NCBI GenBank assembly: GCA_041650915.1
Contig: JBAZKE010000002.1
Location: 80,638 to 144,637, forward strand
DNA: 64,000 bases
From: Patescibacteria group bacterium
GTDB taxonomy: Bacteria > Patescibacteriota > Patescibacteriia > UBA10025 > JAHIVO01
Direction: 5' to 3'
The notes beneath the pieces are model-generated. The model saw only the letters and a program-made list of their open reading frames with translations. It was not told where the DNA came from and did not search any database. The position numbers were made by a program, and so were the translations under genes. Positions 1 to 10,266 of the stretch are shown here, piece after piece (position 1 is the first letter of the stretch; each line of letters begins with the position of its first letter).

Positions 1-1
1 C

Positions 2-166
2 GCCTCAGCTGGGCTCAGCCCACATGTGTCCCCGCAGTCCCTCCGAGATGCCCATACGGCAGAGCTTCTCGCACGGGGCGCCGATATCAGCATGATTCAG
101 GCGCAGCTCGGATTCACATCGCGGGAAGTCGCACAGCAGTACGCGAAACGGATCCGATACGGTTGA
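2..166 (+). CDS. Tyrosine recombinase (integrase) C-terminal fragment, truncated by the window edge
   Basis: Frame 2 reads ...LRDAHTAELLARGADISMIQAQLGFTSREVAQQYAKRIRYG*, stop TGA at 164-166. The pattern R..H..(LL.GAD...IQ.LG..S...Q.Y) matches the RHR...Y catalytic C-terminus of XerC/XerD/phage integrases, including the terminal Tyr. Confidence 0.4.
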   Translation, partial: ASAGLSPHVSPQSLRDAHTAELLARGADISMIQAQLGFTSREVAQQYAKRIRYG

Positions 167-217
167 CGGAGCATGGATTTTTTGGTACAGTCCCGTTGTT
201 TTAAACAATGAGGGTAA

Positions 218-721
218 ATGAACGTGGCAAAAAACAACAGAGGTAAAAATAAAATCGTGATGTGCGACGACATATTCGGGAATCTGTACCGCATCCCCGC
301 ACGAAAGCTGCAATTCAGGCCATCTGTCTATGGCATCATTGTAGAGCGCGGCAAGGTACTGCTCTCAAAAATTTTCGGCGGGTACGACCTGCCGGGCGGG
401 GCGATTGAGCTCCATGAAACGATTGAGCAGGCGCTCATACGCGAAATCTGGGAAGAAACGGGCTTCAAGGTAAAACCCCAACAGCTGCTCTCATCAAATT
501 CGAATTTCTTCGTGCTCGTAACAACGAAACAGCCGGTCAACAGCATCCAGCTCTACTACCGGTGCAAAAAACTATCGGGCAGGCTGTCAACAAAAAATTT
601 CGATCACTACGAGAAAAAATACGCCGGCATGGCAGAGTGGGTAGACATCAACAAAATGGGTGGACTCAAGTACTACAGTTCAATTAATATCCCGGCGTTA
701 ATCAAACAGTCTGTACAATAA
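218..721 (+). CDS. Nudix hydrolase
   Basis: Nudix box GGYDLPGGAIELHETIEQALIREIWEETGF (GX5EX7REUXEEXGU); 167 aa. Confidence 0.75.
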   Translation: MNVAKNNRGKNKIVMCDDIFGNLYRIPARKLQFRPSVYGIIVERGKVLLSKIFGGYDLPGGAIELHETIEQALIREIWEETGFKVKPQQLLSSNSNFFVLVTTKQPVNSIQLYYRCKKLSGRLSTKNFDHYEKKYAGMAEWVDINKMGGLKYYSSINIPALIKQSVQ

Positions 722-816
722 ATTATCGCTCGGCGGAAGATGTCCCGGACCCGACCGATACGTTATGCAAAAAGGTAACTTGGGGGAACAATAATTAATG
801 TTTTCCCCATACGCAT

Positions 817-888
817 GCCTCCGTAGCTCAACGGATAGAGCGCCAGCCTTCTAAGCTGGACATAGAGGTTCGATTCCTCTCGGGGGCA
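817..888 (+). tRNA. tRNA-Arg (anticodon TCT)
   Basis: Manual cloverleaf: acceptor GCCTCCG/CGGGGGC with one G-U, D arm GCTC..GAGC, anticodon stem CCAGC/GCTGG, loop CTTCTAA, T arm AGAGG-TTCGATT-CCTCT, discriminator A. Confidence 0.85.
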
Positions 889-914
889 CGAGAATCATTA
901 TTGACTAAAAACGT

Positions 915-1253
915 ATGGCATGTTTTACAGCACCGGCAGCGGCGGCAATAGCGATTGCCGGCATTAAAAAAAAGATCCCCCCGAAATACCATATCGAATG
1001 GCTCACCACCATGCTCTGGGGCGGCGTCGTGATGCTCGCGGTCGAACACGTAACTCATGGCGAGGTCGTTTGGTATCCGCCATTCCTGACGGCAATGGAA
1101 AATCCGGCTGATATACCTGTTATGCTTAAAGAAATCGCAACAGTCGGCGGTGCCATGACCATTGCAATCGTTGTAGCATGGGCAGTTATGGCAGTAGTAG
1201 CAAATAATATGGCGAAAAAACGAGAAACAAGGACTCATACAATAACAGCATAA
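915..1253 (+). CDS. Small membrane protein (paralog 1 of a tandem pair)
   Basis: 112 aa with two hydrophobic segments. Shares the motif LWGGVVMLAVEHVTHGE with LWGATIMIAVDHIMGYE in the next ORF. Confidence 0.5.
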   Translation: MACFTAPAAAAIAIAGIKKKIPPKYHIEWLTTMLWGGVVMLAVEHVTHGEVVWYPPFLTAMENPADIPVMLKEIATVGGAMTIAIVVAWAVMAVVANNMAKKRETRTHTITA

Positions 1254-1259
1254 AAACAT

Positions 1260-1556
1260 ATGTGGTTACTAACGACTGGCACCGCCGCGCTCATCGCTAC
1301 CCTCTTGTGCCGCACGCTGAAAAACAAATATAGATTGGGGCTGTTAAGCTTGATGCTGTGGGGAGCAACGATTATGATCGCAGTTGACCATATCATGGGA
1401 TACGAGGGCGGCCAATTTCTGGAGATTACAACGGACGGGATGGTCACCAGCGGTACGTGGCTCGGGATAATAATGTTAGTTCCGGTATTCCTCATCTGGC
1501 TCGTTGCGATTATTGTACCGAGGCTGAAACATACGCAAACAGCGCACAACCAATAA
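1260..1556 (+). CDS. Small membrane protein (paralog 2)
   Basis: 98 aa, hydrophobic, paralogous to 915..1253. Confidence 0.5.
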   Translation: MWLLTTGTAALIATLLCRTLKNKYRLGLLSLMLWGATIMIAVDHIMGYEGGQFLEITTDGMVTSGTWLGIIMLVPVFLIWLVAIIVPRLKHTQTAHNQ

Positions 1557-1760
1557 CCGAAGCCTGTTCGATGGACATATCATGGCGGAATGTAAAGCTG
1601 CCCTGATTAACAATGCATACGCCCGGCCACACGGCGAGACGGGCCTGAATTAATAAAATAAAACGTTCATAGCAAACTCACGGCCAGGCGGCAAGGCGGA
1701 CCGTAATGCCGGGAACTCTTGAAAAATAATCCTCCTTTGTCTATACTTCAAACCACTTAC

Positions 1761-1781
1761 GCGCGCATAGCTCAGCCGGTA
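1761..1781 (+). repeat. 21-nt exact duplicate of the tRNA-Lys 5' end (GCGCGCATAGCTCAGCCGGTA)
   Basis: Identical to 2109..2129, the acceptor and D arm of tRNA-Lys, lying 348 bp upstream. Brackets the GIY-YIG ORF. Confidence 0.8.
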
Positions 1782-1851
1782 TCCCTTGTCCCGCAAAGCG
1801 GGACCGGGACCCCGGCCCAAAGGGCCAGGGGGAGCAATTACACACAGGTAC

Positions 1852-2118
1852 ATGCACTACCTATACATACTACACAGTAAAAAAGATGCAAACTTGTATG
1901 TTGGGACAACAAACAATGCCGAAAGAAGGCTTGCTGAGCATAATGCCGGGCAAGTAGCGTCAACAAAAAACCGCAGGCCTCTGGCAATCGTATATTTGAA
2001 ACCGTACCCAACAAAACGGGAAGCCGCTAAACAGGAATGGTTGATAAAACATACCCCCGGCGCCGGAAAAAATAAAAAAGACCTCATTAAACAGTATCAA
2101 CAAACCAAGCGCGCATAG
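1852..2118 (+). CDS. GIY-YIG nuclease family protein (UPF0213/YhbQ-like)
   Basis: HYLYILHSKKDANLYVGTTNNAERRLAEHNAG...RRPLAIVY...REAAKQEWLIK has the GIY-(10)-YIG core plus the conserved Arg and Glu. The stop codon overlaps the first 10 nt of tRNA-Lys. The upstream TTG-initiated extension lies in a GC-rich hairpin and is unlikely to be coding. Confidence 0.65.
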   Translation: MHYLYILHSKKDANLYVGTTNNAERRLAEHNAGQVASTKNRRPLAIVYLKPYPTKREAAKQEWLIKHTPGAGKNKKDLIKQYQQTKRA

Positions 2119-2181
2119 CTCAGCCGGTAGAGCAGTTGCCTCTTAAGCAAACGGTCGGGGGTTCGAATCCCTCTGCGCGCA
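2109..2181 (+). tRNA. tRNA-Lys (anticodon CTT)
   Basis: Acceptor GCGCGCA/TGCGCGC, D arm GCTC-AGCCGGTA-GAGC, anticodon loop CTCTTAA, T arm GGGGG-TTCGAAT-CCCTC, discriminator A. Confidence 0.85.
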
Positions 2182-2227
2182 TAGCAAAAGCACTCAGCAA
2201 AAACGAGCTGGGTGTTTTTGATTACCC
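2165..2227 (+). repeat. Direct repeat A: last 17 nt of tRNA-Lys plus 46 nt of 3' flank
   Basis: gaatccctctgcgcgcatagcaaaagcactcagcaaaaacgagctgggtgtttttgattaccc; repeated at 2328..2389. Confidence 0.8.
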
Positions 2228-2327
2228 GCAGACGTACTGCAAGCCGGGATTCGAACGGGCACGAACGAGGCGCAGCCGAGTGACAAACAATTCGAGCTTA
2301 CGCAGAATTGTTTGGTGCCCAGGACGA
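2228..2327 (+). repeat. tRNA-linked structured element, copy 1 (divergent member; 100-nt core between 62/63-nt direct repeats)
   Basis: Core starts GGGATTCGAACGGGCAC and ends GTGCCCAGGACGAGAATCCCTC. Closing helix GGGCAC/GTGCCC. Internal 11-bp hairpin ACAAACAATTC-GAGCTTACGCA-GAATTGTTTG. Same 5' and 3' signature as the elements at 11.8 kb and 37.7-38.0 kb. Confidence 0.55.
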
Positions 2328-2389
2328 GAATCCCTCTGCGCGCATAGCAAAAGCACTCAGCAAAAACGAGCTGGGTGTTTTGATTACCC
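2328..2389 (+). repeat. Direct repeat B (copy of tRNA-Lys 3' end plus flank)
   Basis: 62-nt copy of 2165..2227, differing by one T fewer. Confidence 0.8.
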
Positions 2390-2399
2390 ACTGGCAACA

Positions 2400-3215
2400 C
2401 TACACTGGCCGCAGCGTACTGGCCCACACCTGCCACGCGAGAAGCGACTTTGCGACGAGGCTCAAGATAATATACGCACGCTCGCCGTACAGGTAGTCGC
2501 GCCACTTGCCAACCTTCTTATACTGCAAGATCATGTTGACTGCGAAGGAATTGAAGAACAGGAAGATTGAGAAGTAAATCCAATACACGAACGCCGGCGC
2601 CTTTGCGTCGCCTTCCCCGGCCGTAAACAGGTAAAGCCCGACAACGATCCATGGCACAGCTCCCGCGAGCACGCCAAACCAGTATGAAGTCCAGTCGGTC
2701 TTTTCGGTCCGCTGGTTATGCAGCTCCATCATCCAGCCAAACAGGATCATCATCATATTCAAGAAAAAAATCATAACCAGCCCGAGGCCGTCGTAGAGGC
2801 CGGTGAGCATGGCGATAATCACAATCATGAGCGACGAGCTGAATGCGTACTCAATCCAGCGCGCAGGGTTGATTCCTCTTCTTAGGTTTGATGCGTACTT
2901 CCGGTAGCCTGCGGGCAGCGAAATGAGGAGATGGGCGAGCGCTGACAAAAACAGAAATGCCGCTACCATCGGGCCGAGCTGTACCGTAAATTCAGTCTTG
3001 AGCACCGGCTCTAACTTCAGAGATTGCCGATTCATTTCCACGAATGCGGAGGTAATCGGCAACGCGAAATCAGAGCTCAAAAAGAGCATCAGGAATCCCT
3101 GCACCGCATGCAGTGCAGCCATAATAATGTTGAACCGCCTGAGCTTACCGAATTTTGCTTCGTCTTGCTGCGGAATTGCATCCGCTGTCTGTTCATTTTC
3201 CATAGTGCTACGCAC
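2400..3215 (-). CDS. Heliorhodopsin
   Basis: Matches heliorhodopsin signature blocks across 7 TM helices: RWIEYAFSSSLMIVIIA, ILFGWMME, WFGVLAGAVPW, SIFLFFNSFA, LQYKKVGKW, YLYGERAYIILSLVAKSLLAWQ, the last containing the retinal Schiff-base Lys. 271 aa. Confidence 0.85.
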   Translation of the reverse strand: MRSTMENEQTADAIPQQDEAKFGKLRRFNIIMAALHAVQGFLMLFLSSDFALPITSAFVEMNRQSLKLEPVLKTEFTVQLGPMVAAFLFLSALAHLLISLPAGYRKYASNLRRGINPARWIEYAFSSSLMIVIIAMLTGLYDGLGLVMIFFLNMMMILFGWMMELHNQRTEKTDWTSYWFGVLAGAVPWIVVGLYLFTAGEGDAKAPAFVYWIYFSIFLFFNSFAVNMILQYKKVGKWRDYLYGERAYIILSLVAKSLLAWQVWASTLRPV

Positions 3216-3487
3216 AATAATGTTACATTCTAACTATATAGTTAACCGCGCTATAAAACAAGATCACTGGTTGGGTATTAAAATTCGTATCAGGTCCGAA
3301 ACCATCGTAACAAATAATCATCACACTCGTACGCTCCATCAACATTTGCCCATTGGACTGAATCCGTCTTCATGAAGAGTAGCCTTGAGGCTAACGGTAC
3401 CGGCATTTGAATATTTGTGCAAATCGTGCATTGTGATTACTCTCTAAAGTAGAGTATACTGACAGAGCTAATCTCTGCCGCTTTACT

Positions 3488-4618
3488 ATGAAAAAATGTA
3501 CCGTCATTGCACTCTCCGTGGTTCTCTTCCTGGCGCTTATCCCGGCGGTTGCCGCCGGGCAGCAGGATGACGAAATTTTTAAAGCCCGCGTGCTCGACAT
3601 TCTTGAAGAAAAAACGATAACGGATGAAATGGGTGAGTCGATCACGCTCCAGCGCCTTAAGCTGCGCGGGCTTGAGGGAACGTGGAAAGGCATGGAAATC
3701 GAATTTGACGGCACCGAGTACGAGGTCATGAGCGCCAATGAGTATGAGGCGGGTGACAAGGTCATGGTCGCGGCTTCCCGTGATGCGGAAGGCAACGACG
3801 TCTTCTACGTCACTGACCACGTGCGGCAGGGATCACTCTACTGGCTCGCGGCCATCTTTGCTACCGTCGTCGTGGCCATCGGCAGGCTCAAGGGAATGCG
3901 CGCGATCGCCGTGCTGGTTGCGTCATTTTTTATCATTTTAAAATTTATCATCCCGCTCATCCTGGACGGGAAGAGCCCGCTGCTCATCAGCATTATCGGA
4001 TCCGTCTTCATTCTCGTTATTGCCATCTACATCACCGAAGGATTCAAGCGCAGCTCAACGGTTGCCATCGGTGCCATTACGGTTTCGCTCCTCATTACCG
4101 GCTTCCTTTCCGTGTGGTTTACGAAGCTCGCGAGGCTCACCGGATACGCGAACGACGATGTATTTTTCCTCAAGAGCTCACTCGGCAGCGGCATCAATGT
4201 TGAGGGCCTGCTGCTCGCCGGCATTATTATCGGCGCGCTTGGCGTGCTCGATGACGTCGTCGTCGCGCAGATTGAAACGGTCAACCAGCTCACCGGGGCG
4301 AATCCCTCACTGAAAAAACGCGAGCTGTACGCGCGCGCCATGAAGGTCGGCGTGACCCACATGAGCGCGATGGTTAATACGCTTTTCCTCGCATACGCAG
4401 GCGCTTCACTGCCGCTCCTCATCCTCTTCAGCAACCGGCTCGAGGTGACATTCTCACAGGCGCTCAATAATGAGCTTATTGCAACAGAAATCGTACGTAC
4501 GGTCGCAGGAAGCATCGGCCTGATCCTCGCGGTGCCGCTCGCAACGCTGCTCGCGGTCCACTTCATTCGATCCAAAAAAATGAAGGTAAAAACCGCACCA
4601 GAGATCGCCTCCCAATAA
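3488..4618 (+). CDS. YibE/F-like integral membrane protein
   Basis: Signal/anchor followed by a ~110-aa extracytoplasmic domain and six or more TM helices. Overall YibE/F-like architecture; family assignment is tentative. Confidence 0.5.
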   Translation: MKKCTVIALSVVLFLALIPAVAAGQQDDEIFKARVLDILEEKTITDEMGESITLQRLKLRGLEGTWKGMEIEFDGTEYEVMSANEYEAGDKVMVAASRDAEGNDVFYVTDHVRQGSLYWLAAIFATVVVAIGRLKGMRAIAVLVASFFIILKFIIPLILDGKSPLLISIIGSVFILVIAIYITEGFKRSSTVAIGAITVSLLITGFLSVWFTKLARLTGYANDDVFFLKSSLGSGINVEGLLLAGIIIGALGVLDDVVVAQIETVNQLTGANPSLKKRELYARAMKVGVTHMSAMVNTLFLAYAGASLPLLILFSNRLEVTFSQALNNELIATEIVRTVAGSIGLILAVPLATLLAVHFIRSKKMKVKTAPEIASQ

Positions 4619-4620
4619 AC

Positions 4621-4641
4621 AATTGCAAATCATTTGCAATT
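4621..4641. promoter_or_regulatory. Perfect 10-1-10 palindrome AATTGCAAAT-C-ATTTGCAATT; candidate Zur/Fur operator
   Basis: 21-bp perfect inverted repeat lying 32 bp upstream of the Fur-family gene start at 4674 and heading the zur-zupT pair. Confidence 0.5.
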
Positions 4642-4673
4642 AAAAATTCATCGTGCTACCATGGTTACAACCT

Positions 4674-5051
4674 ATGGATTTTGTACGTGCGCTGCAAAAA
4701 GCAGGCTATAAATGCACCAAACCGCGCTTGGCGCTGCTGTCGCATTTTAAAAACAGTGCGTCCCCGCAAACCCCCCAGCAGATCCACCGTTCGGTCAAGC
4801 GGCAGGGAATTGATCTCACGACCGTTTACCGCACACTCGAGGTATTCAGAAAAGTGGGCATCGTATTCCGTGAAGAAATGATGAGCGAATCCCGATTCTT
4901 TTTGGCGGAAAAAGAACACCACCATATCATCTGCCGCACGTGCGGCACCATCAGGTGCCTCCCGTGCAATGTAAAGCTGCCGAAACCGAAAGGATTCTCA
5001 AAAATCAAGCACGCATTTACCCTGACCGGCATCTGCAGCGACTGCACATAA
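4674..5051 (+). CDS. zur: Fur-family metalloregulator, likely Zur
   Basis: MDFVRALQKAGYKCTKPRLALLSHF...TVYRTLEVFRKVGIV...HHHIIC..CG..CLPC: winged-helix DNA-binding region plus metal-site His and Cys. Sits directly upstream of a ZIP zinc transporter. Confidence 0.7.
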   Translation: MDFVRALQKAGYKCTKPRLALLSHFKNSASPQTPQQIHRSVKRQGIDLTTVYRTLEVFRKVGIVFREEMMSESRFFLAEKEHHHIICRTCGTIRCLPCNVKLPKPKGFSKIKHAFTLTGICSDCT

Positions 5052-5061
5052 CTAAAACAAT

Positions 5062-5811
5062 ATGACCACAACATGGCTCTACACCATCGGCAGCGTTCTC
5101 ATCGTCAGCCTCATATCGCTGATCGGATTGTTTACGCTCGCGATGAATCTCGACCGGCTGAAAAAAATACTCCTCCTACTCGTCAGCTTTGCGGCCGGTT
5201 CGCTGCTTGGGGGCGCATTCCTGCACCTCCTGCCGCACAGCATTGAGGAATCGGGTAACGTCGAGCTCACCGCCCTAATGATTCTCGCCGGTATCATACT
5301 TTTCCTCGTGCTCGAAAAAATACTCTGCTGGCGCCACTGCCACATACCAACATCAGAAGAGCACCCCCACCCGGTCGGCATCAACAACCTCATCGGCGAC
5401 GGCTTCCATAACCTCATCGATGGCATGATCATTGCTGGGTCCTATATGGTCAGCGTGCCGGTCGGCATCGCAACAACGATTGCGGTGCTGCTCCACGAAA
5501 TACCGCAGGAAATCGGCGACTTCGGCATCCTCATCCACGCCGGATACTCAAAAGCGAAAGCAATCTTCTTTAATTTCATTTCAGCGCTCACCGCCGTACT
5601 CGGCGCAGCCATGACTCTCCTCATCGGGACGTCAGTAGAGGAAACGCACCACTACCTGGTGCCCTTTACGATTGGCGGCTTCATTTATATCGCGACAGCA
5701 GACCTCATACCCGAGCTTAAAAAAGAAACAAACCTGAAAAAATCGATCACGCAGGTCATTGCACTCCTCTTCGGCATCAGCATCATGGGGCTGCTGCTCT
5801 TGCTCGAGTAG
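5062..5811 (+). CDS. zupT: ZIP-family zinc transporter (ZupT-like)
   Basis: HNLIDGM and HEIPQEIGDFGIL metal-binding motifs of the ZIP family; 8 TM; 249 aa. Confidence 0.8.
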   Translation: MTTTWLYTIGSVLIVSLISLIGLFTLAMNLDRLKKILLLLVSFAAGSLLGGAFLHLLPHSIEESGNVELTALMILAGIILFLVLEKILCWRHCHIPTSEEHPHPVGINNLIGDGFHNLIDGMIIAGSYMVSVPVGIATTIAVLLHEIPQEIGDFGILIHAGYSKAKAIFFNFISALTAVLGAAMTLLIGTSVEETHHYLVPFTIGGFIYIATADLIPELKKETNLKKSITQVIALLFGISIMGLLLLLE

Positions 5812-5836
5812 CACGCACGGTATACTATGAAAGCAT

Positions 5837-6214
5837 ATGAAACTGCAAGCCCACTTCATCTATACCTTCGTAGCGGGAGTCATTATCCTTATTGCGGTGT
5901 TAATGACGGCCGCTGCACTCTACTACCAGTACTGCCAGGATGACGCGCAGGGTTCGGTAGCCGTCATTTCCTCTTTCGAGGACTGCGCCGCCGCAGGAAA
6001 TCCCGTCATGGAAAGCTACCCGCGCCAGTGCGTGGCCGGTGGCAGAACATTTACCGAATCACCGGCAAATGCCAACCAGCTGCTCGGCGGCGATGAGGAC
6101 GAGCACGGATGCAAAGCATCGGCCGGGTATTCATGGTGCGAAGAAAAACAAAAATGCCTTCGGACATGGGAAGAAGCCTGCGAATCGGCTACGGATGCCG
6201 CCACTGGCGATTAG
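5837..6214 (+). CDS. Membrane-anchored Cys-rich hypothetical protein
   Basis: N-terminal TM anchor followed by an acidic, Cys-rich extracytoplasmic domain. Confidence 0.45.
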   Translation: MKLQAHFIYTFVAGVIILIAVLMTAAALYYQYCQDDAQGSVAVISSFEDCAAAGNPVMESYPRQCVAGGRTFTESPANANQLLGGDEDEHGCKASAGYSWCEEKQKCLRTWEEACESATDAATGD

Positions 6215-6254
6215 TGCGGCTCTTGCCCTGCAAATTGCATAACGACCATTCTCT

Positions 6255-6704
6255 ATGAAAAAAATGCGCATCGGCACGTTCGCACTCCCGCTCCTCGCGG
6301 TTCTTTTAATTGCAGCTCCGGCAGCGGGGCAAGTACACATCAACTCCGAACTTGGCATGACGTTCGGCCCGCCGCCTGAAGCTGATCTTGAATCAACCGT
6401 CATCAACATCGTACAGTGGCTGCTCTTCCTCATACTCATTGTTTCTTTCTTACTGCTCGCACTCGGCATTACGATGACCGCGTTAAAAACTCATGCAATG
6501 AAAAAAATGAGGGAGCGGCACGCGCTGCAGTATGGCATCAACGCTCCCTGGCAGGCTTCGGAACAGGAACAGTACCACGCATTCAGGCGAAGCAGAACGA
6601 TCTTCATCATCATCCTCTGCGCAGGCGGCGCGGGCATTGTGCTGTCGCTCATCGCATGGACAATTACAATTTTTGTCGTTTCCCAAACTGCTGTGGTATA
6701 CTAA
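6255..6704 (+). CDS. Secreted/membrane hypothetical protein (signal peptide plus two TM; VirB2/TrbC-pilin-like topology)
   Basis: MKKMRIGTFALPLLAVLLIAAPAAGQ signal peptide, then two long hydrophobic helices. Confidence 0.45.
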   Translation: MKKMRIGTFALPLLAVLLIAAPAAGQVHINSELGMTFGPPPEADLESTVINIVQWLLFLILIVSFLLLALGITMTALKTHAMKKMRERHALQYGINAPWQASEQEQYHAFRRSRTIFIIILCAGGAGIVLSLIAWTITIFVVSQTAVVY

Positions 6705-6920
6705 ATGCTGCTGCAGAAATTAATAGCAATACGTATGGATCAACAATCTGACAATACGCATAAGAATGGCCCCTGGCCGATTCTCATCACGATACTCTTC
6801 GTCATTATCGTCGCGGTTGGGATGGCATACGTCATCTTAACGACCGACAGCAACGAGAACAGTACGACGAATGCGGCGAATGCCCCGTTAAACGGGAATA
6901 CTGCCCCGACAAACACCTAG
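6705..6920 (+). CDS. Small single-TM protein
   Basis: 71 aa, one TM, Asn/Thr-rich tail. Start codon uncertain. Confidence 0.3.
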   Translation: MLLQKLIAIRMDQQSDNTHKNGPWPILITILFVIIVAVGMAYVILTTDSNENSTTNAANAPLNGNTAPTNT

Positions 6921-7034
6921 CGCGCCAGAATGCCTGTTCGGGCGCAAACTTCCCGTCGTGGCCCATCTTTCAGTCACTGGCTGGCAATACCAAAACCCTG
7001 TAGCAATCCTGGAGGGGGAATTTGTATTAAAAAA

Positions 7035-7067
7035 GAGCCACCGGTCTGGAACAACCAGTGGCTCTGC
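7035..7067. terminator. Bidirectional intrinsic terminator hairpin
   Basis: AGAGCCACtGG-tctggaacaa-CCaGTGGCTCT with a T-run on the minus strand (aaaaaag on plus). Lies between the convergent genes 6705..6920 (+) and 7081..8706 (-). Confidence 0.5.
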
Positions 7068-7080
7068 ACATGACTGAAGC

Positions 7081-8706
7081 TTACACCTCCATGAAGTTTG
7101 CGTCCGAACACCGTATCGTGATCGGCGACGACGCCTTACTGAACGTGCGCTCATGGCGCTGGACATACGTCTTGCCGGGCGGAATCCTCCAGCCGCTTTT
7201 TGACCTGGCAAGCTCATGCGCCGTTTTACTTGCCGTATATCCATCAGGGAGCCGGCGAAACCGCGCACGCATGATTCGAACCTCATCGCGCCTGGCCTGC
7301 CGGATGCACCGGACCATGGAACATCCTGGAACGGCTTCGACACTGCGCTGTTCGTCATCGGAGCCGACCACGATCGCGTGGAGCGCATAGACGATGACAC
7401 ACAGCAATACTTCGCGCAGATACCCGAGATCGGATTCGTAGGCATTCTCAAGCACGTGGTCATTGACAATGAGCTGAAAATCGACAAGCTCAGCCGGAAA
7501 CCAGCAGAGCGCATACGCGTCCTTGCGGACGCCGATCTTCAAGCCGCAGTTCGGAAACTCATGCCCGTTCGGATAAAAGGCAACGGCACGAATCCCGGAA
7601 AACCGCAGCGCGCTCAGGTCAATTTCGACCCGATCATGCCCGTCGGGCAAGAGTTCGCACTGCACGTTGTCGCGGATCTCATCGCACATGCGCCGAAAGG
7701 CGGCTCGCAAATCGTTTTGTCGGTCCACAAACCGCTCCTTAAATGCCCGGCTCTCGCGATACATCCGATCCTTGCTGGCGCGGTCAGCCGTGATGAAGTC
7801 AACCAGCGGCTGCTCGCAGTCATCAGGAATGAGAATGTGAGGCTTCTGAAAATCAAACTGCCCTGGCACTGGTTCCGCCGCAACTGCGGACTCCCCCTGC
7901 CGTTCGTCCAGCCACGCGGGGGTATAGATGGCGATGCTCCGATTGAGCGACGCGAGCAACTCGAGTATGCCCCTCAAGTAGTCATCGACATCACGATCTC
8001 CCTTGCCGGCTGCCCGAATCAGATTAACGATCCACCGCTTCGACGAAAAAGCTTCATCACACGGCAACACGGCGGCCTGTATCGTGATTCTCGCGAACAA
8101 CGGCGGCCGCTGCCCAAAATAAGCGCTTTGCTTCGCTTCCGGAAGCGAGATGCCGTGCTCGATGGTGGAGCTGATCTCGCGAAACAGAAGCTCACAGAAC
8201 CGCTTGGTGTTCTCGATTGATTCGCCGATCGCCCTGAAGATGAAACCGGACGTTGCCGAACAAACGCATACATACTCACGCGAAACATTTTCTGCCGGAG
8301 TCATCGCGACCTCCAGTAGCGACAGATCCCCCTTCGCAAGGCTGCGAAGGGCAATCTTGGAAATCAACTCAACGTAGGCTGGCGTATCAATTCGCCCGGC
8401 GAGCTTGCAGTAGCGCTTCGCGACAAAATTGAGTATCTTCCTGAAAATGGCCCTGCAATCACCTCCCGATACGCTGCCGTCGCTCGTACCGAACATAGAC
8501 TCGTAGATGCCGCCAACGGCCTGATTGGACAACTCGCCCGTGCGTCCCGACAATACTTCCGCCAGAAAATTCCCCAGGATTTGGTTCGCGCCTCCATCGG
8601 CGTGATTGGTTCCCTTCTTTTTCTTGTTCCTGTTTTTGGAGCTCAAGGCAGCCCCTCCTTTCTCTCTCGATCTATATGTATATTCTATTTTCAATGTTCC
8701 GATCAC
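7081..8706 (-). CDS. Large orphan hypothetical protein, 541 aa
   Basis: Longest ORF in the region. Followed on its own strand by a hairpin plus U-tract terminator. No recognisable motifs; no Walker A, HD or CxxC. Low-complexity Lys-rich N-terminus, so the true start may be internal. Confidence 0.5.
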   Translation of the reverse strand: MIGTLKIEYTYRSREKGGAALSSKNRNKKKKGTNHADGGANQILGNFLAEVLSGRTGELSNQAVGGIYESMFGTSDGSVSGGDCRAIFRKILNFVAKRYCKLAGRIDTPAYVELISKIALRSLAKGDLSLLEVAMTPAENVSREYVCVCSATSGFIFRAIGESIENTKRFCELLFREISSTIEHGISLPEAKQSAYFGQRPPLFARITIQAAVLPCDEAFSSKRWIVNLIRAAGKGDRDVDDYLRGILELLASLNRSIAIYTPAWLDERQGESAVAAEPVPGQFDFQKPHILIPDDCEQPLVDFITADRASKDRMYRESRAFKERFVDRQNDLRAAFRRMCDEIRDNVQCELLPDGHDRVEIDLSALRFSGIRAVAFYPNGHEFPNCGLKIGVRKDAYALCWFPAELVDFQLIVNDHVLENAYESDLGYLREVLLCVIVYALHAIVVGSDDEQRSVEAVPGCSMVRCIRQARRDEVRIMRARFRRLPDGYTASKTAHELARSKSGWRIPPGKTYVQRHERTFSKASSPITIRCSDANFMEV

Positions 8707-8775
8707 CCAACGTACCAGAAAACGGACTCCCCGTCAAGTACAATCGCATTGATTATTCAGTACTTTTTCAGTACA

Positions 8776-10266
8776 ATGAAAGCACGGAACCGTATGCGTG
8801 CAATCCAAAACCTCCTCAGAAAAAAAGAGCTCTCGTTCATCCCGAAACTCCTCAAGCGGCTGCCGAGAGCCGAGCTCTTTTTGGTTGGCGGCATCATCCG
8901 CGATACGGCGGTGAAGCGTCCGTCAAAAGACTTCGACTTCGTTATCCGCAACGTCGGGGCAGCCAAACTCCAGTCGGAGCTCAAGAAGCTTGGGTGGGTT
9001 GACCTTGTCGGAAAGCGGTTCGGCGTATTCAAGTTTATCCCACAAGGCCTCACGCTCCCTGAACCGATCGATCTGGCGCTGCCGCGTACCGAGCATGCGC
9101 TCCTGACCGGCGGATACCGCGACTTCGACGTGCAATCAGACCCCAAGCTGCCCATTGAGCAGGACCTCATGCGCCGCGATTTTACCATCAATGCGATGGC
9201 ATACGACATCAGAGAGCAAAAGCTCATTGACCGGTTCGGCGGCATGCATGACATCAAAAAAAAGCTGATCAGGACGGTTGGCAAGCCCAACGAACGCTTT
9301 ACCGAAGATTTGTCCCGTATGCTCCGCGCGCTCCGGTTTGCGTCACAGCTGCACTTTTCAATCGAAACGCAAACCTGGCGCTCGCTCAAGAAGCTCAGCG
9401 CGCGCATCAACAAGCTCATCGCCGGAGAATACGTCGTACCGCGTGAAACCGTCGCACGCGAGCTGACAAAGGCGCTCACCGCAGATCCCGTATACGCAAT
9501 CGGGCTCCTCACAAAATCCGGCATCACCGAAAAGCTCATGCCTGAACTCATGAAGATGAAAGGGTGCCGGCAGCCGCGGAACTTCCACAGCGAGGGAGAC
9601 GTGTGGAAACATACGATGATTTGCATGCAAAACCTCTACTCAAATCCGTTCAAAAAAAAATTCGGCCCCGAGCCGCCCTCACCGGAACTCATCTACGCGG
9701 CGCTGCTCCACGATATCGGCAAACCGTACACGATAGAGCGGGCTGACCGGCTGCGGTTCAACAACCATGACGCCGTGGGGGCCGAGCTCTCAAAAAAAAT
9801 CCTATCGCGCCTGAGGATATCCTCGTCGGGCGTCGATACGGACCGGATCGTATGGCTCATACGGATGCACCTCATCACCACCCACTCCAAAAAATCACCA
9901 ATGAAAAAGACGACGCTCGAAAAATACTTTTTCAACGACCAACTGCCCGGAGGAGACCTGCTAAGGCTCCTGTACGCTGACGTGCAGGCGACGATCCCGC
10001 CGAGCGGCTGCCCGGATTTTACCGAGCACCATGCGCTCGAACAGCAGATAAAAAAACTCAGCCCGGAAGCACGCCACAGGCGTTCATTGCCGCCCGTGAT
10101 CATGGACGGCAATGAGATCATGCAGCAGCTCCGCATGGAACCGGGACCGGCCGTCGGGCAGCTCAAGACGCTCCTGCGCGAAGAGCAGCTCCGCGGCGGC
10201 CTCAAGACAAAAAAACAAGCAATGGAATTCCTCAAAAAGCATGCCAACATTCGACGTTACGCCTGA
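8776..10266 (+). CDS. cca: CCA-adding enzyme / poly(A) polymerase family tRNA nucleotidyltransferase with HD domain
   Basis: N-terminal PolyA_pol head (FLVGGIIRD, DFDF) and C-terminal HD domain (LLHDIGKP). Start placed at the internal MKARNRM. Confidence 0.8.
   Translation: MKARNRMRAIQNLLRKKELSFIPKLLKRLPRAELFLVGGIIRDTAVKRPSKDFDFVIRNVGAAKLQSELKKLGWVDLVGKRFGVFKFIPQGLTLPEPIDLALPRTEHALLTGGYRDFDVQSDPKLPIEQDLMRRDFTINAMAYDIREQKLIDRFGGMHDIKKKLIRTVGKPNERFTEDLSRMLRALRFASQLHFSIETQTWRSLKKLSARINKLIAGEYVVPRETVARELTKALTADPVYAIGLLTKSGITEKLMPELMKMKGCRQPRNFHSEGDVWKHTMICMQNLYSNPFKKKFGPEPPSPELIYAALLHDIGKPYTIERADRLRFNNHDAVGAELSKKILSRLRISSSGVDTDRIVWLIRMHLITTHSKKSPMKKTTLEKYFFNDQLPGGDLLRLLYADVQATIPPSGCPDFTEHHALEQQIKKLSPEARHRRSLPPVIMDGNEIMQQLRMEPGPAVGQLKTLLREEQLRGGLKTKKQAMEFLKKHANIRRYA

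Follow-up and report, generated by a model that had tools for sequence, protein, structure and literature searches.

An intact, standalone heliorhodopsin gene between a tRNA-Lys gene and YibE/F, Fur-family and ZIP-family genes in a Patescibacteria contig

Gene layout around the heliorhodopsin gene

The window (the whole 64-kb stretch of DNA that was analysed) carries a heliorhodopsin (HeR) gene on the minus strand, lying between a tRNA-Lys region and a group of metal-related genes. Heliorhodopsins are light-sensing membrane proteins that bind retinal. The features of the locus are the following.

1761-1781 and 2109-2129: first 21 nt of tRNA-Lys, duplicated exactly; the two copies flank the GIY-YIG ORF
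1852-2118, opposite strand to HeR: GIY-YIG ORF of 88 aa, overlapping the start of tRNA-Lys
2109-2181, plus strand: tRNA-Lys(CTT)
2165-2218 and 2328-2381, plus strand: exact 54-nt repeat, consisting of the last 17 nt of tRNA-Lys and a 37-nt terminator hairpin
2400-3215, minus strand: HeR coding sequence, matched by PF18761, NF038020 and TaHeR (6is6)
3216-3487, unstranded: divergent intergenic region of 272 bp between HeR and YibE/F
3488-4618, plus strand: YibE/F-family membrane protein (PF07907, E=2.6e-66)
4653-5051, plus strand: Fur-family regulator (Pfam)
5062-5811, plus strand: ZIP-family transporter (Pfam)

The HeR frame covers 271 aa from a GTG at 3215 and 267 aa from an ATG at 3203, four codons in. 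The ATG, which is used by NCBI, is likely the true start, and the 267-aa product is 100% identical to NCBI MFA5134869.1, 'MAG: heliorhodopsin HeR [Patescibacteria group bacterium]', which is encoded on a contig of 229 kb. Since tRNA-Lys and the GIY-YIG ORF (downstream) and YibE/F (upstream) are on the opposite strand, HeR is monocistronic by layout. A test for an operon with a partner gene found no co-directional adjacent gene, the neighbours being YibE/F, tRNA-Lys and the GIY-YIG ORF. An earlier sequence-only reading of this DNA had described the gene as monocistronic and divergent from YibE/F, and this description holds, with both flanking genes on the opposite strand and a gap of 272 bp to YibE/F.

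HeR lies 1.4 kb from the Fur-family gene and 1.8 kb from the ZIP gene, a pair which had been referred to as Zur-ZupT. These names could not be established. The best NCBIfam matches of the regulator are Fur/PerR models at 35-45 bits, compared to cut-offs of 146-220, and the transporter scores 57 bits against NCBIfam ZupT, for which the cut-off is 252. As both are far below the equivalog cut-offs, we refer to them by family only. The database identity of HeR places the window in a bacterium of the candidate phyla radiation (CPR), and the remaining gene content is in keeping with this, as it includes genes for type IV pili, a sortase and several small membrane proteins that have no annotation.

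The promoter of HeR must sit in 3216-3487, as this is the region between the divergent HeR and YibE/F genes. A putative minus-strand promoter was picked by eye, with TTGTTT at 3261-3256, a 17-nt spacer and TATAGT at 3238-3233; the promoter consensus scan gave no minus-strand site for HeR. The putative -10 element overlaps a perfect palindrome of 14 bp, TAACTATATAGTTA (3231-3244), which is unique in the window. It is not above chance, however, given that 48 of 100 shuffles have at least one match at up to 3 mismatches. There was no Fur-type box in the HeR/YibE-F intergenic region. The Rfam scan of positions 1-6500 at E<=1 returned two tRNAs only; neither the gap between HeR and YibE/F nor the surroundings of the GIY-YIG ORF gave a riboswitch or an intron. 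On the other side of the gene, a convincing HeR terminator was not found. The hairpin past the HeR stop codon has z=-4.75 (first copy) and z=-2.67 (second copy) on the plus strand and is weak on the HeR strand (z=-0.73).

Between tRNA-Arg and the GIY-YIG/tRNA-Lys region, a pair of small membrane proteins, paralogues of 112 and 98 aa, are encoded side by side (915-1253 and 1260-1556). They share the motif L..MLWG....M.AV.H, and neither has a Pfam or NCBIfam match.

Identity of the protein

The ORF matches the Pfam Heliorhodopsin profile PF18761 end to end (model positions 1-242 of 242) with E=7.2e-101 and 337 bits, compared to a cut-off of 26.7. It also matches the NCBIfam equivalog NF038020, 'heliorhodopsin HeR', over model positions 1-244 of 244 with 345.5 bits, the cut-off being 100. 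These profile matches cannot be chance. At E<=0.01 the Pfam scan of the ORF gave only PF18761 and a chance match to BacA, with no type-1 Bac_rhodopsin. Sequence matches among solved structures are all heliorhodopsins, TaHeR (6IS6) being first with E=1e-80, followed by 48C12 with E=1.6e-61. The positions that matter most for retinal binding are listed below.

Residues 251-262 of HeR: motif LSLVAKSLLAWQ, containing the Schiff-base lysine
2448-2450, minus strand: codon of K256, the retinal Schiff-base lysine, in S252-L-V-A-K256 of TM7; aligns to TaHeR K238
2850-2852, minus strand: codon of E122, the single Glu counterion in TM3 (ARWIEY); aligns to TaHeR E108

In the alignment, residues H36, S91, H95, R119, E122, S126, E164, S252 and K256 correspond to TaHeR H23, S78, H82, R105, E108, S112, E150, S234 and K238, respectively. 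The protein thus has all the residues with an established requirement in retinal binding and in the photoreaction of HeRs. The retinal-lysine motif is SxxxK in HeRs and DxxxK in type-1 rhodopsins, and that of the present protein is SxxxK (SLVAK), not DxxxK. We also aligned 24 Patescibacteria HeRs having 64-84% identity to the protein. K256, E122, H36 and H95 are invariant in all of them, and the intact frame together with the invariant functional residues across relatives points to purifying selection on the gene.

The same alignment was used as input for AlphaFold2, which gave a model with a mean pLDDT of 82.5, seven helices and two strands between TM1 and TM2 at 51-62 and 67-79. A long two-stranded beta-hairpin between TM1 and TM2 is peculiar to HeRs. 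When the model was searched against PDB with Foldseek, ranks 1-10 were HeR chains (TM 0.80-0.91, E<=1.4e-14). The best type-1 rhodopsin had E=1.5e-3, TM 0.58 and 16% identity, and type-1 entries overall had TM values of about 0.5-0.6 and identities of 10-17%.

Curated profiles, alignment to solved HeRs, structure prediction and fold search thus agree with the original assignment of the ORF as a heliorhodopsin carrying the retinal lysine. The two outcomes that would have spoken against it did not occur, as K256 stays aligned to TaHeR K238 and the protein groups with HeRs instead of type-1 rhodopsins. Judging from sequence and predicted fold, it is near certain that this is a bona fide heliorhodopsin. 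The gene is already known as such: it is annotated, it is typical of an established family, and that family is documented in the phylum. More than 100 homologues having 64-84% identity carry the name 'heliorhodopsin HeR [Patescibacteria group bacterium]', and HeRs in Patescibacteria have been published (PMC9166423, PMC8612252). As a discovery it therefore matters little, as an ordinary and correctly named HeR in a phylum where HeRs are known.

Retinal supply, known relatives and proposed function

Families corresponding to blh, crtB, crtI, crtY and polyprenyl synthase were absent from the about 58 window ORFs scanned with Pfam, which are nearly all those of at least 80 aa kept by a greedy ORF call in the 64-kb window. 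A tblastn search of the window using CrtB, GGPP synthase, CrtI and Caroten_synth from a related locus also returned nothing, in agreement with the initial statement that no blh or crt genes are visible here. A lateral fenestration has been described for TaHeR, and retinal scavenged by the cell may enter the present protein in the same manner. In published work, HeRs quickly absorb exogenous retinal via a lateral opening (PMC9296517, PMC9385722), and rhodopsin-bearing CPR genomes are generally without blh (PMC9296517). Given this general lack of blh and the lack of a pathway in the 64-kb window, we infer that scavenging of the chromophore, from the environment or from a host, is most likely.

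A different situation is seen in one of the near relatives. The contig of locus L084, with an HeR of 80% identity, has phytoene synthase, polyprenyl synthase, a phytoene-desaturase-like amino oxidase and Caroten_synth at 3750-8859. These carotenoid genes are 2-8 kb from HeR and count against the scavenging explanation; some near relatives, then, have carotenoid genes next to HeR.

The closest solved relative is TaHeR from Thermoplasmatales archaeon SG8-52-1 (PDB 6IS6, 7U55, 7CLJ), with 52.7% identity over 256 aligned positions and, for the predicted model, TM values of 0.84/0.91 and a Foldseek E of 2e-20. The two proteins share length class, the nine key residues and the long TM1-TM2 beta-hairpin, and the TaHeR host is without a visible retinal pathway, as is the present host within the 64-kb window. 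They differ in that the TaHeR host is archaeal whereas the present host is bacterial (Patescibacteria), and in that our protein has an N-terminus longer by 13 residues and a 4-residue insertion in the TM5-TM6 loop. 48C12, from a freshwater actinobacterial fosmid (PDB 6SU3, 6SU4, 6UH3; E=1.6e-61, TM 0.82/0.86, 43% identity), has the same fold and the same Lys/Glu/His set but belongs to a more distant clade. Compared to the HeRs of Patescibacteria/CPR (Chiriac et al. 2022, Bulzu et al. 2021), which have the same phylum-level host and the same SLVAK motif, the sole difference is a local gene context peculiar to this genome.

Three members of the same family regulate a partner protein, which is glutamine synthetase (GS) for AbHeR, a photolyase for TfHeR and the OmrDE ABC transporter for OcHeR. 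The present protein resembles them in its basic cytoplasmic surface, having 13 K/R on the N-terminus and the inside loops (2, 4 and 6) and 5 on the opposite side. As a prediction only, this charge distribution fits the inverted membrane topology with a cytoplasmic N-terminus. AbHeR, TfHeR and OcHeR share an operon with their partner, whereas our gene has no co-directional neighbour, and GS, photolyase and ABC-transporter genes are absent from beside it.

Our preferred reading, which we regard as probable, is that the locus encodes an intact standalone HeR that scavenges retinal and serves as a photosensor modulating an unlinked partner, and that the metal-unit neighbours are unrelated to it. 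Based on conservation and on TaHeR and 48C12, the protein would bind all-trans retinal at K256 with E122 as counterion. Its photocycle would be slow and without net ion transport, as in TaHeR, 48C12, AbHeR, TfHeR and OcHeR. The cytoplasmic loops would then modulate a partner protein encoded elsewhere in the genome, and the adjacent YibE/F, Fur-family and ZIP genes would form an unrelated metal-homeostasis unit. By analogy to AbHeR-GS, TfHeR-photolyase and OcHeR-ABC transporter, we give roughly even chances or better to the narrower proposal of a slow photosensor acting on an unlinked partner via its basic cytoplasmic face.

The alternative that survives best, which we nevertheless find unlikely, is a light-driven or light-gated proton transporter, or a light-harvesting pigment with an exogenous carotenoid antenna. 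The viral V2HeR3 is reportedly a light-driven or light-gated proton transporter. Like viral HeRs, the present gene stands alone without an operon partner (PMC11109279), a preprint of 2025 suggests that HeRs have a conserved carotenoid site and harvest light (10.1101/2025.11.27.691015), and energy-poor CPR cells would gain from either activity. However, the nearest characterised relatives, TaHeR (53%) and 48C12 (43%), are without ion transport in published work, and the checked positions show no departure from either of them. An antenna, moreover, could add to a sensory role and need not replace it. The call between sensor and transporter, as made from sequence, is one that we make without confidence.

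The tRNA-Lys repeats and the recurrence of the neighbouring genes

The sequence-only reading had placed HeR beside a tRNA integration hotspot, and we considered whether it could be the cargo of an element integrated at tRNA-Lys, with the locus as a remnant genomic island. Both ends of the tRNA-Lys gene are indeed duplicated exactly, the second 54-nt copy (2328-2381) ends 19 nt beyond the HeR stop codon, and close HeR relatives share no synteny. The two 54-nt copies are, however, 163 nt apart and bracket 109 bp only, not HeR. Further copies of the tRNA-Lys repeats are absent from the 64 kb, including a third copy of the 54-nt repeat, and neither pair encloses HeR. The scanned window ORFs include no member of an integrase, transposase or recombinase family, and the G+C of HeR (about 0.53) equals that of its surroundings. 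We consequently think the island improbable. The duplications resemble scars left by small insertions within or beside the tRNA gene and could be the trace of small insertions that target tRNAs, but they are not evidence for HeR as mobile cargo. What stands of the hotspot is thus the exact tRNA-Lys duplications and the GIY-YIG ORF, and what falls is any integrase, transposase or repeat bracketing HeR. An intron or homing cassette made up of the tRNA 5' duplicate and GIY-YIG was considered separately and set aside, as neither group I nor group II intron models gave a match.

The neighbourhood of YibE/F and the metal genes had also been proposed as worth recording for guilt-by-association. Put explicitly, HeR would have a functional link to metal (zinc) homeostasis, for example by modulating YibE/F or ZIP in response to light or Zn, with a Zur-like regulator in control. 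The divergent position of HeR beside YibE/F and near the Fur-family and ZIP genes would seem to favor such a tie. Specific binding of Zn2+ has also been reported for TaHeR and 48C12 (Hashimoto 2020, cited in PMC8612252 and PMC9385722), and Zn-ribbon fusions occur on some archaeal HeRs (PMC8612252).

In a comparison of gene neighbourhoods, we collected 80 HeR loci from species-representative genomes, mostly Patescibacteria with some Chloroflexota and Actinomycetota, with a flank of up to 10 kb on each side. Four further loci came from the three closest homologues (80-84% identity). The counts below refer to 83 loci left after redundancy was removed, with a flank of 1.13 Mb in all. Using window proteins in tblastn at E<=0.01, we found YibE/F in 1 of the 83 loci, the Fur-family regulator in 1, ZIP in 2 and GIY-YIG in 1, which is roughly the chance level for single-copy genes in genomes of about 1 Mb. 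The nearest neighbours of HeR were then classified with Pfam (147 adjacent and 141 next ORFs, 288 in the 83 loci). YibE_F, FUR and Zip were absent from these 288 ORFs, and each family occurred at most 3 times per set and at most 5 times overall. The commonest in both sets together were MsrA (5), the NAD-dependent epimerase family (5) and DegV (4), followed by DUF1295, DUF2177, MFS and ABC ATPases (3 each) and by photolyase, pyrimidine-dimer glycosylase, AhpC and MerR/B12-binding regulators (2 each). When the approximately 1,270 flanking ORFs were clustered all-against-all, the largest clusters other than HeR itself were generic, namely response regulators (10 loci), ABC ATPases (9) and a putative histidine kinase (8), the last being a cluster of membrane proteins that we read as such. 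MsrA and ATP-synthase subunits were found in 5 loci each.

This suggests a mild light- or oxidative-damage flavour without a fixed partner, in agreement with reports that HeRs have no consistent gene neighbourhood (PMC8612252, PMC11109279, PMC9385722). Recurrent partner groups have also been described, including GS, photolyase, ABC transporter, MerR, TerC and DUF2177 (PMC11109279). Among the closest relatives, HeR lies by a P-type ATPase (L001), a cytochrome b5 protein (L081), unannotated genes (L083), or a GDSL lipase and the carotenoid cluster (L084). HeRs of 80-84% identity are thus in four different contexts, and no shared synteny emerged when 25 window proteins were compared by tblastn with the 84 HeR loci. 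The P-type ATPase was considered as a shared neighbour and rejected, the window copy being only 29% identical to that of L001 and hence not orthologous. A small secreted-looking protein at 5837-6214, 2.6 kb from HeR, has a Cys-rich C-terminus that shares 64% identity, over 53 aa, with a stretch of L083 (13942-14100), located 3.1 kb from an HeR of 80% identity. Nothing else points to a context shared by close relatives, and this likeness may be a coincidence.

The reverse comparison gave a similar picture. Six metagenomic YibE/F loci (46-59% identity) were without HeR. A Fur-family homologue occurred within about 3 kb of YibE/F in two of the three loci with usable flank (L086 and L087, YibE/F 57-59%), for which reason YibE/F may belong with this Fur-family regulator; the ZIP gene is absent from both loci. 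The regulator is also preceded by a candidate operator.

4621-4641, directly upstream of the Fur-family gene: perfect 10-1-10 palindrome AATTGCAAATcATTTGCAATT, 21 bp

The box AATTGCAAAT-N-ATTTGCAATT occurs only once in the window, with 20/20 matches at 4621-4641; the next best site, at 14/20, is at the shuffle background. It recurs upstream of Fur homologues (41-43% identity) in L086 at 4564-4584 (20/20, at a distance of 32 nt from the gene) and in L087 at 6852-6872 (17/20, 23 nt). The palindrome is probably the regulator's own autoregulatory operator. At 16/20 or better the operator was found neither in any of the 84 HeR loci nor at the HeR promoter region, and most simply HeR would be outside the control of the Fur-family operator.

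The lack of recurrence of the neighbours together with the absence of the operator near HeR removes the basis for an HeR-zinc link at this locus, and HeR is furthermore on the opposite strand. We regard the zinc tie as very improbable, and hold the same view of a variant in which a Zn2+-binding HeR was recruited beside the YibE/F-Fur-ZIP unit in this lineage only, coupling light to metal uptake. If true, such light-metal coupling would give HeR a new class of partner and YibE/F a function. The useful outcome of the comparison is a negative one. A link between a Zn-binding rhodopsin and Fur-ZIP-YibE/F fails against 83 HeR loci and 6 YibE/F loci; its use for guilt-by-association is therefore unwarranted. 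The neighbourhood carries no transferable functional signal and should not spread as evidence of that kind.

That HeR is a functionless relic of a cell unable to make retinal is hardly credible, since, despite the lack of retinal and carotenoid genes in the window and the general lack of blh in CPR rhodopsin genomes (PMC9296517), the frame is full-length, its functional residues are all preserved and do not vary among relatives of 64-84% identity, and external retinal is taken up fast by HeRs (PMC9296517, PMC9385722).

Farther along the window, an ORF of 541 aa on the minus strand (7081-8706) is without a Pfam or NCBIfam family and without a homologue in any fetched locus. It is overlapped by an antisense ORF of 334 aa on the plus strand (7216-8220).
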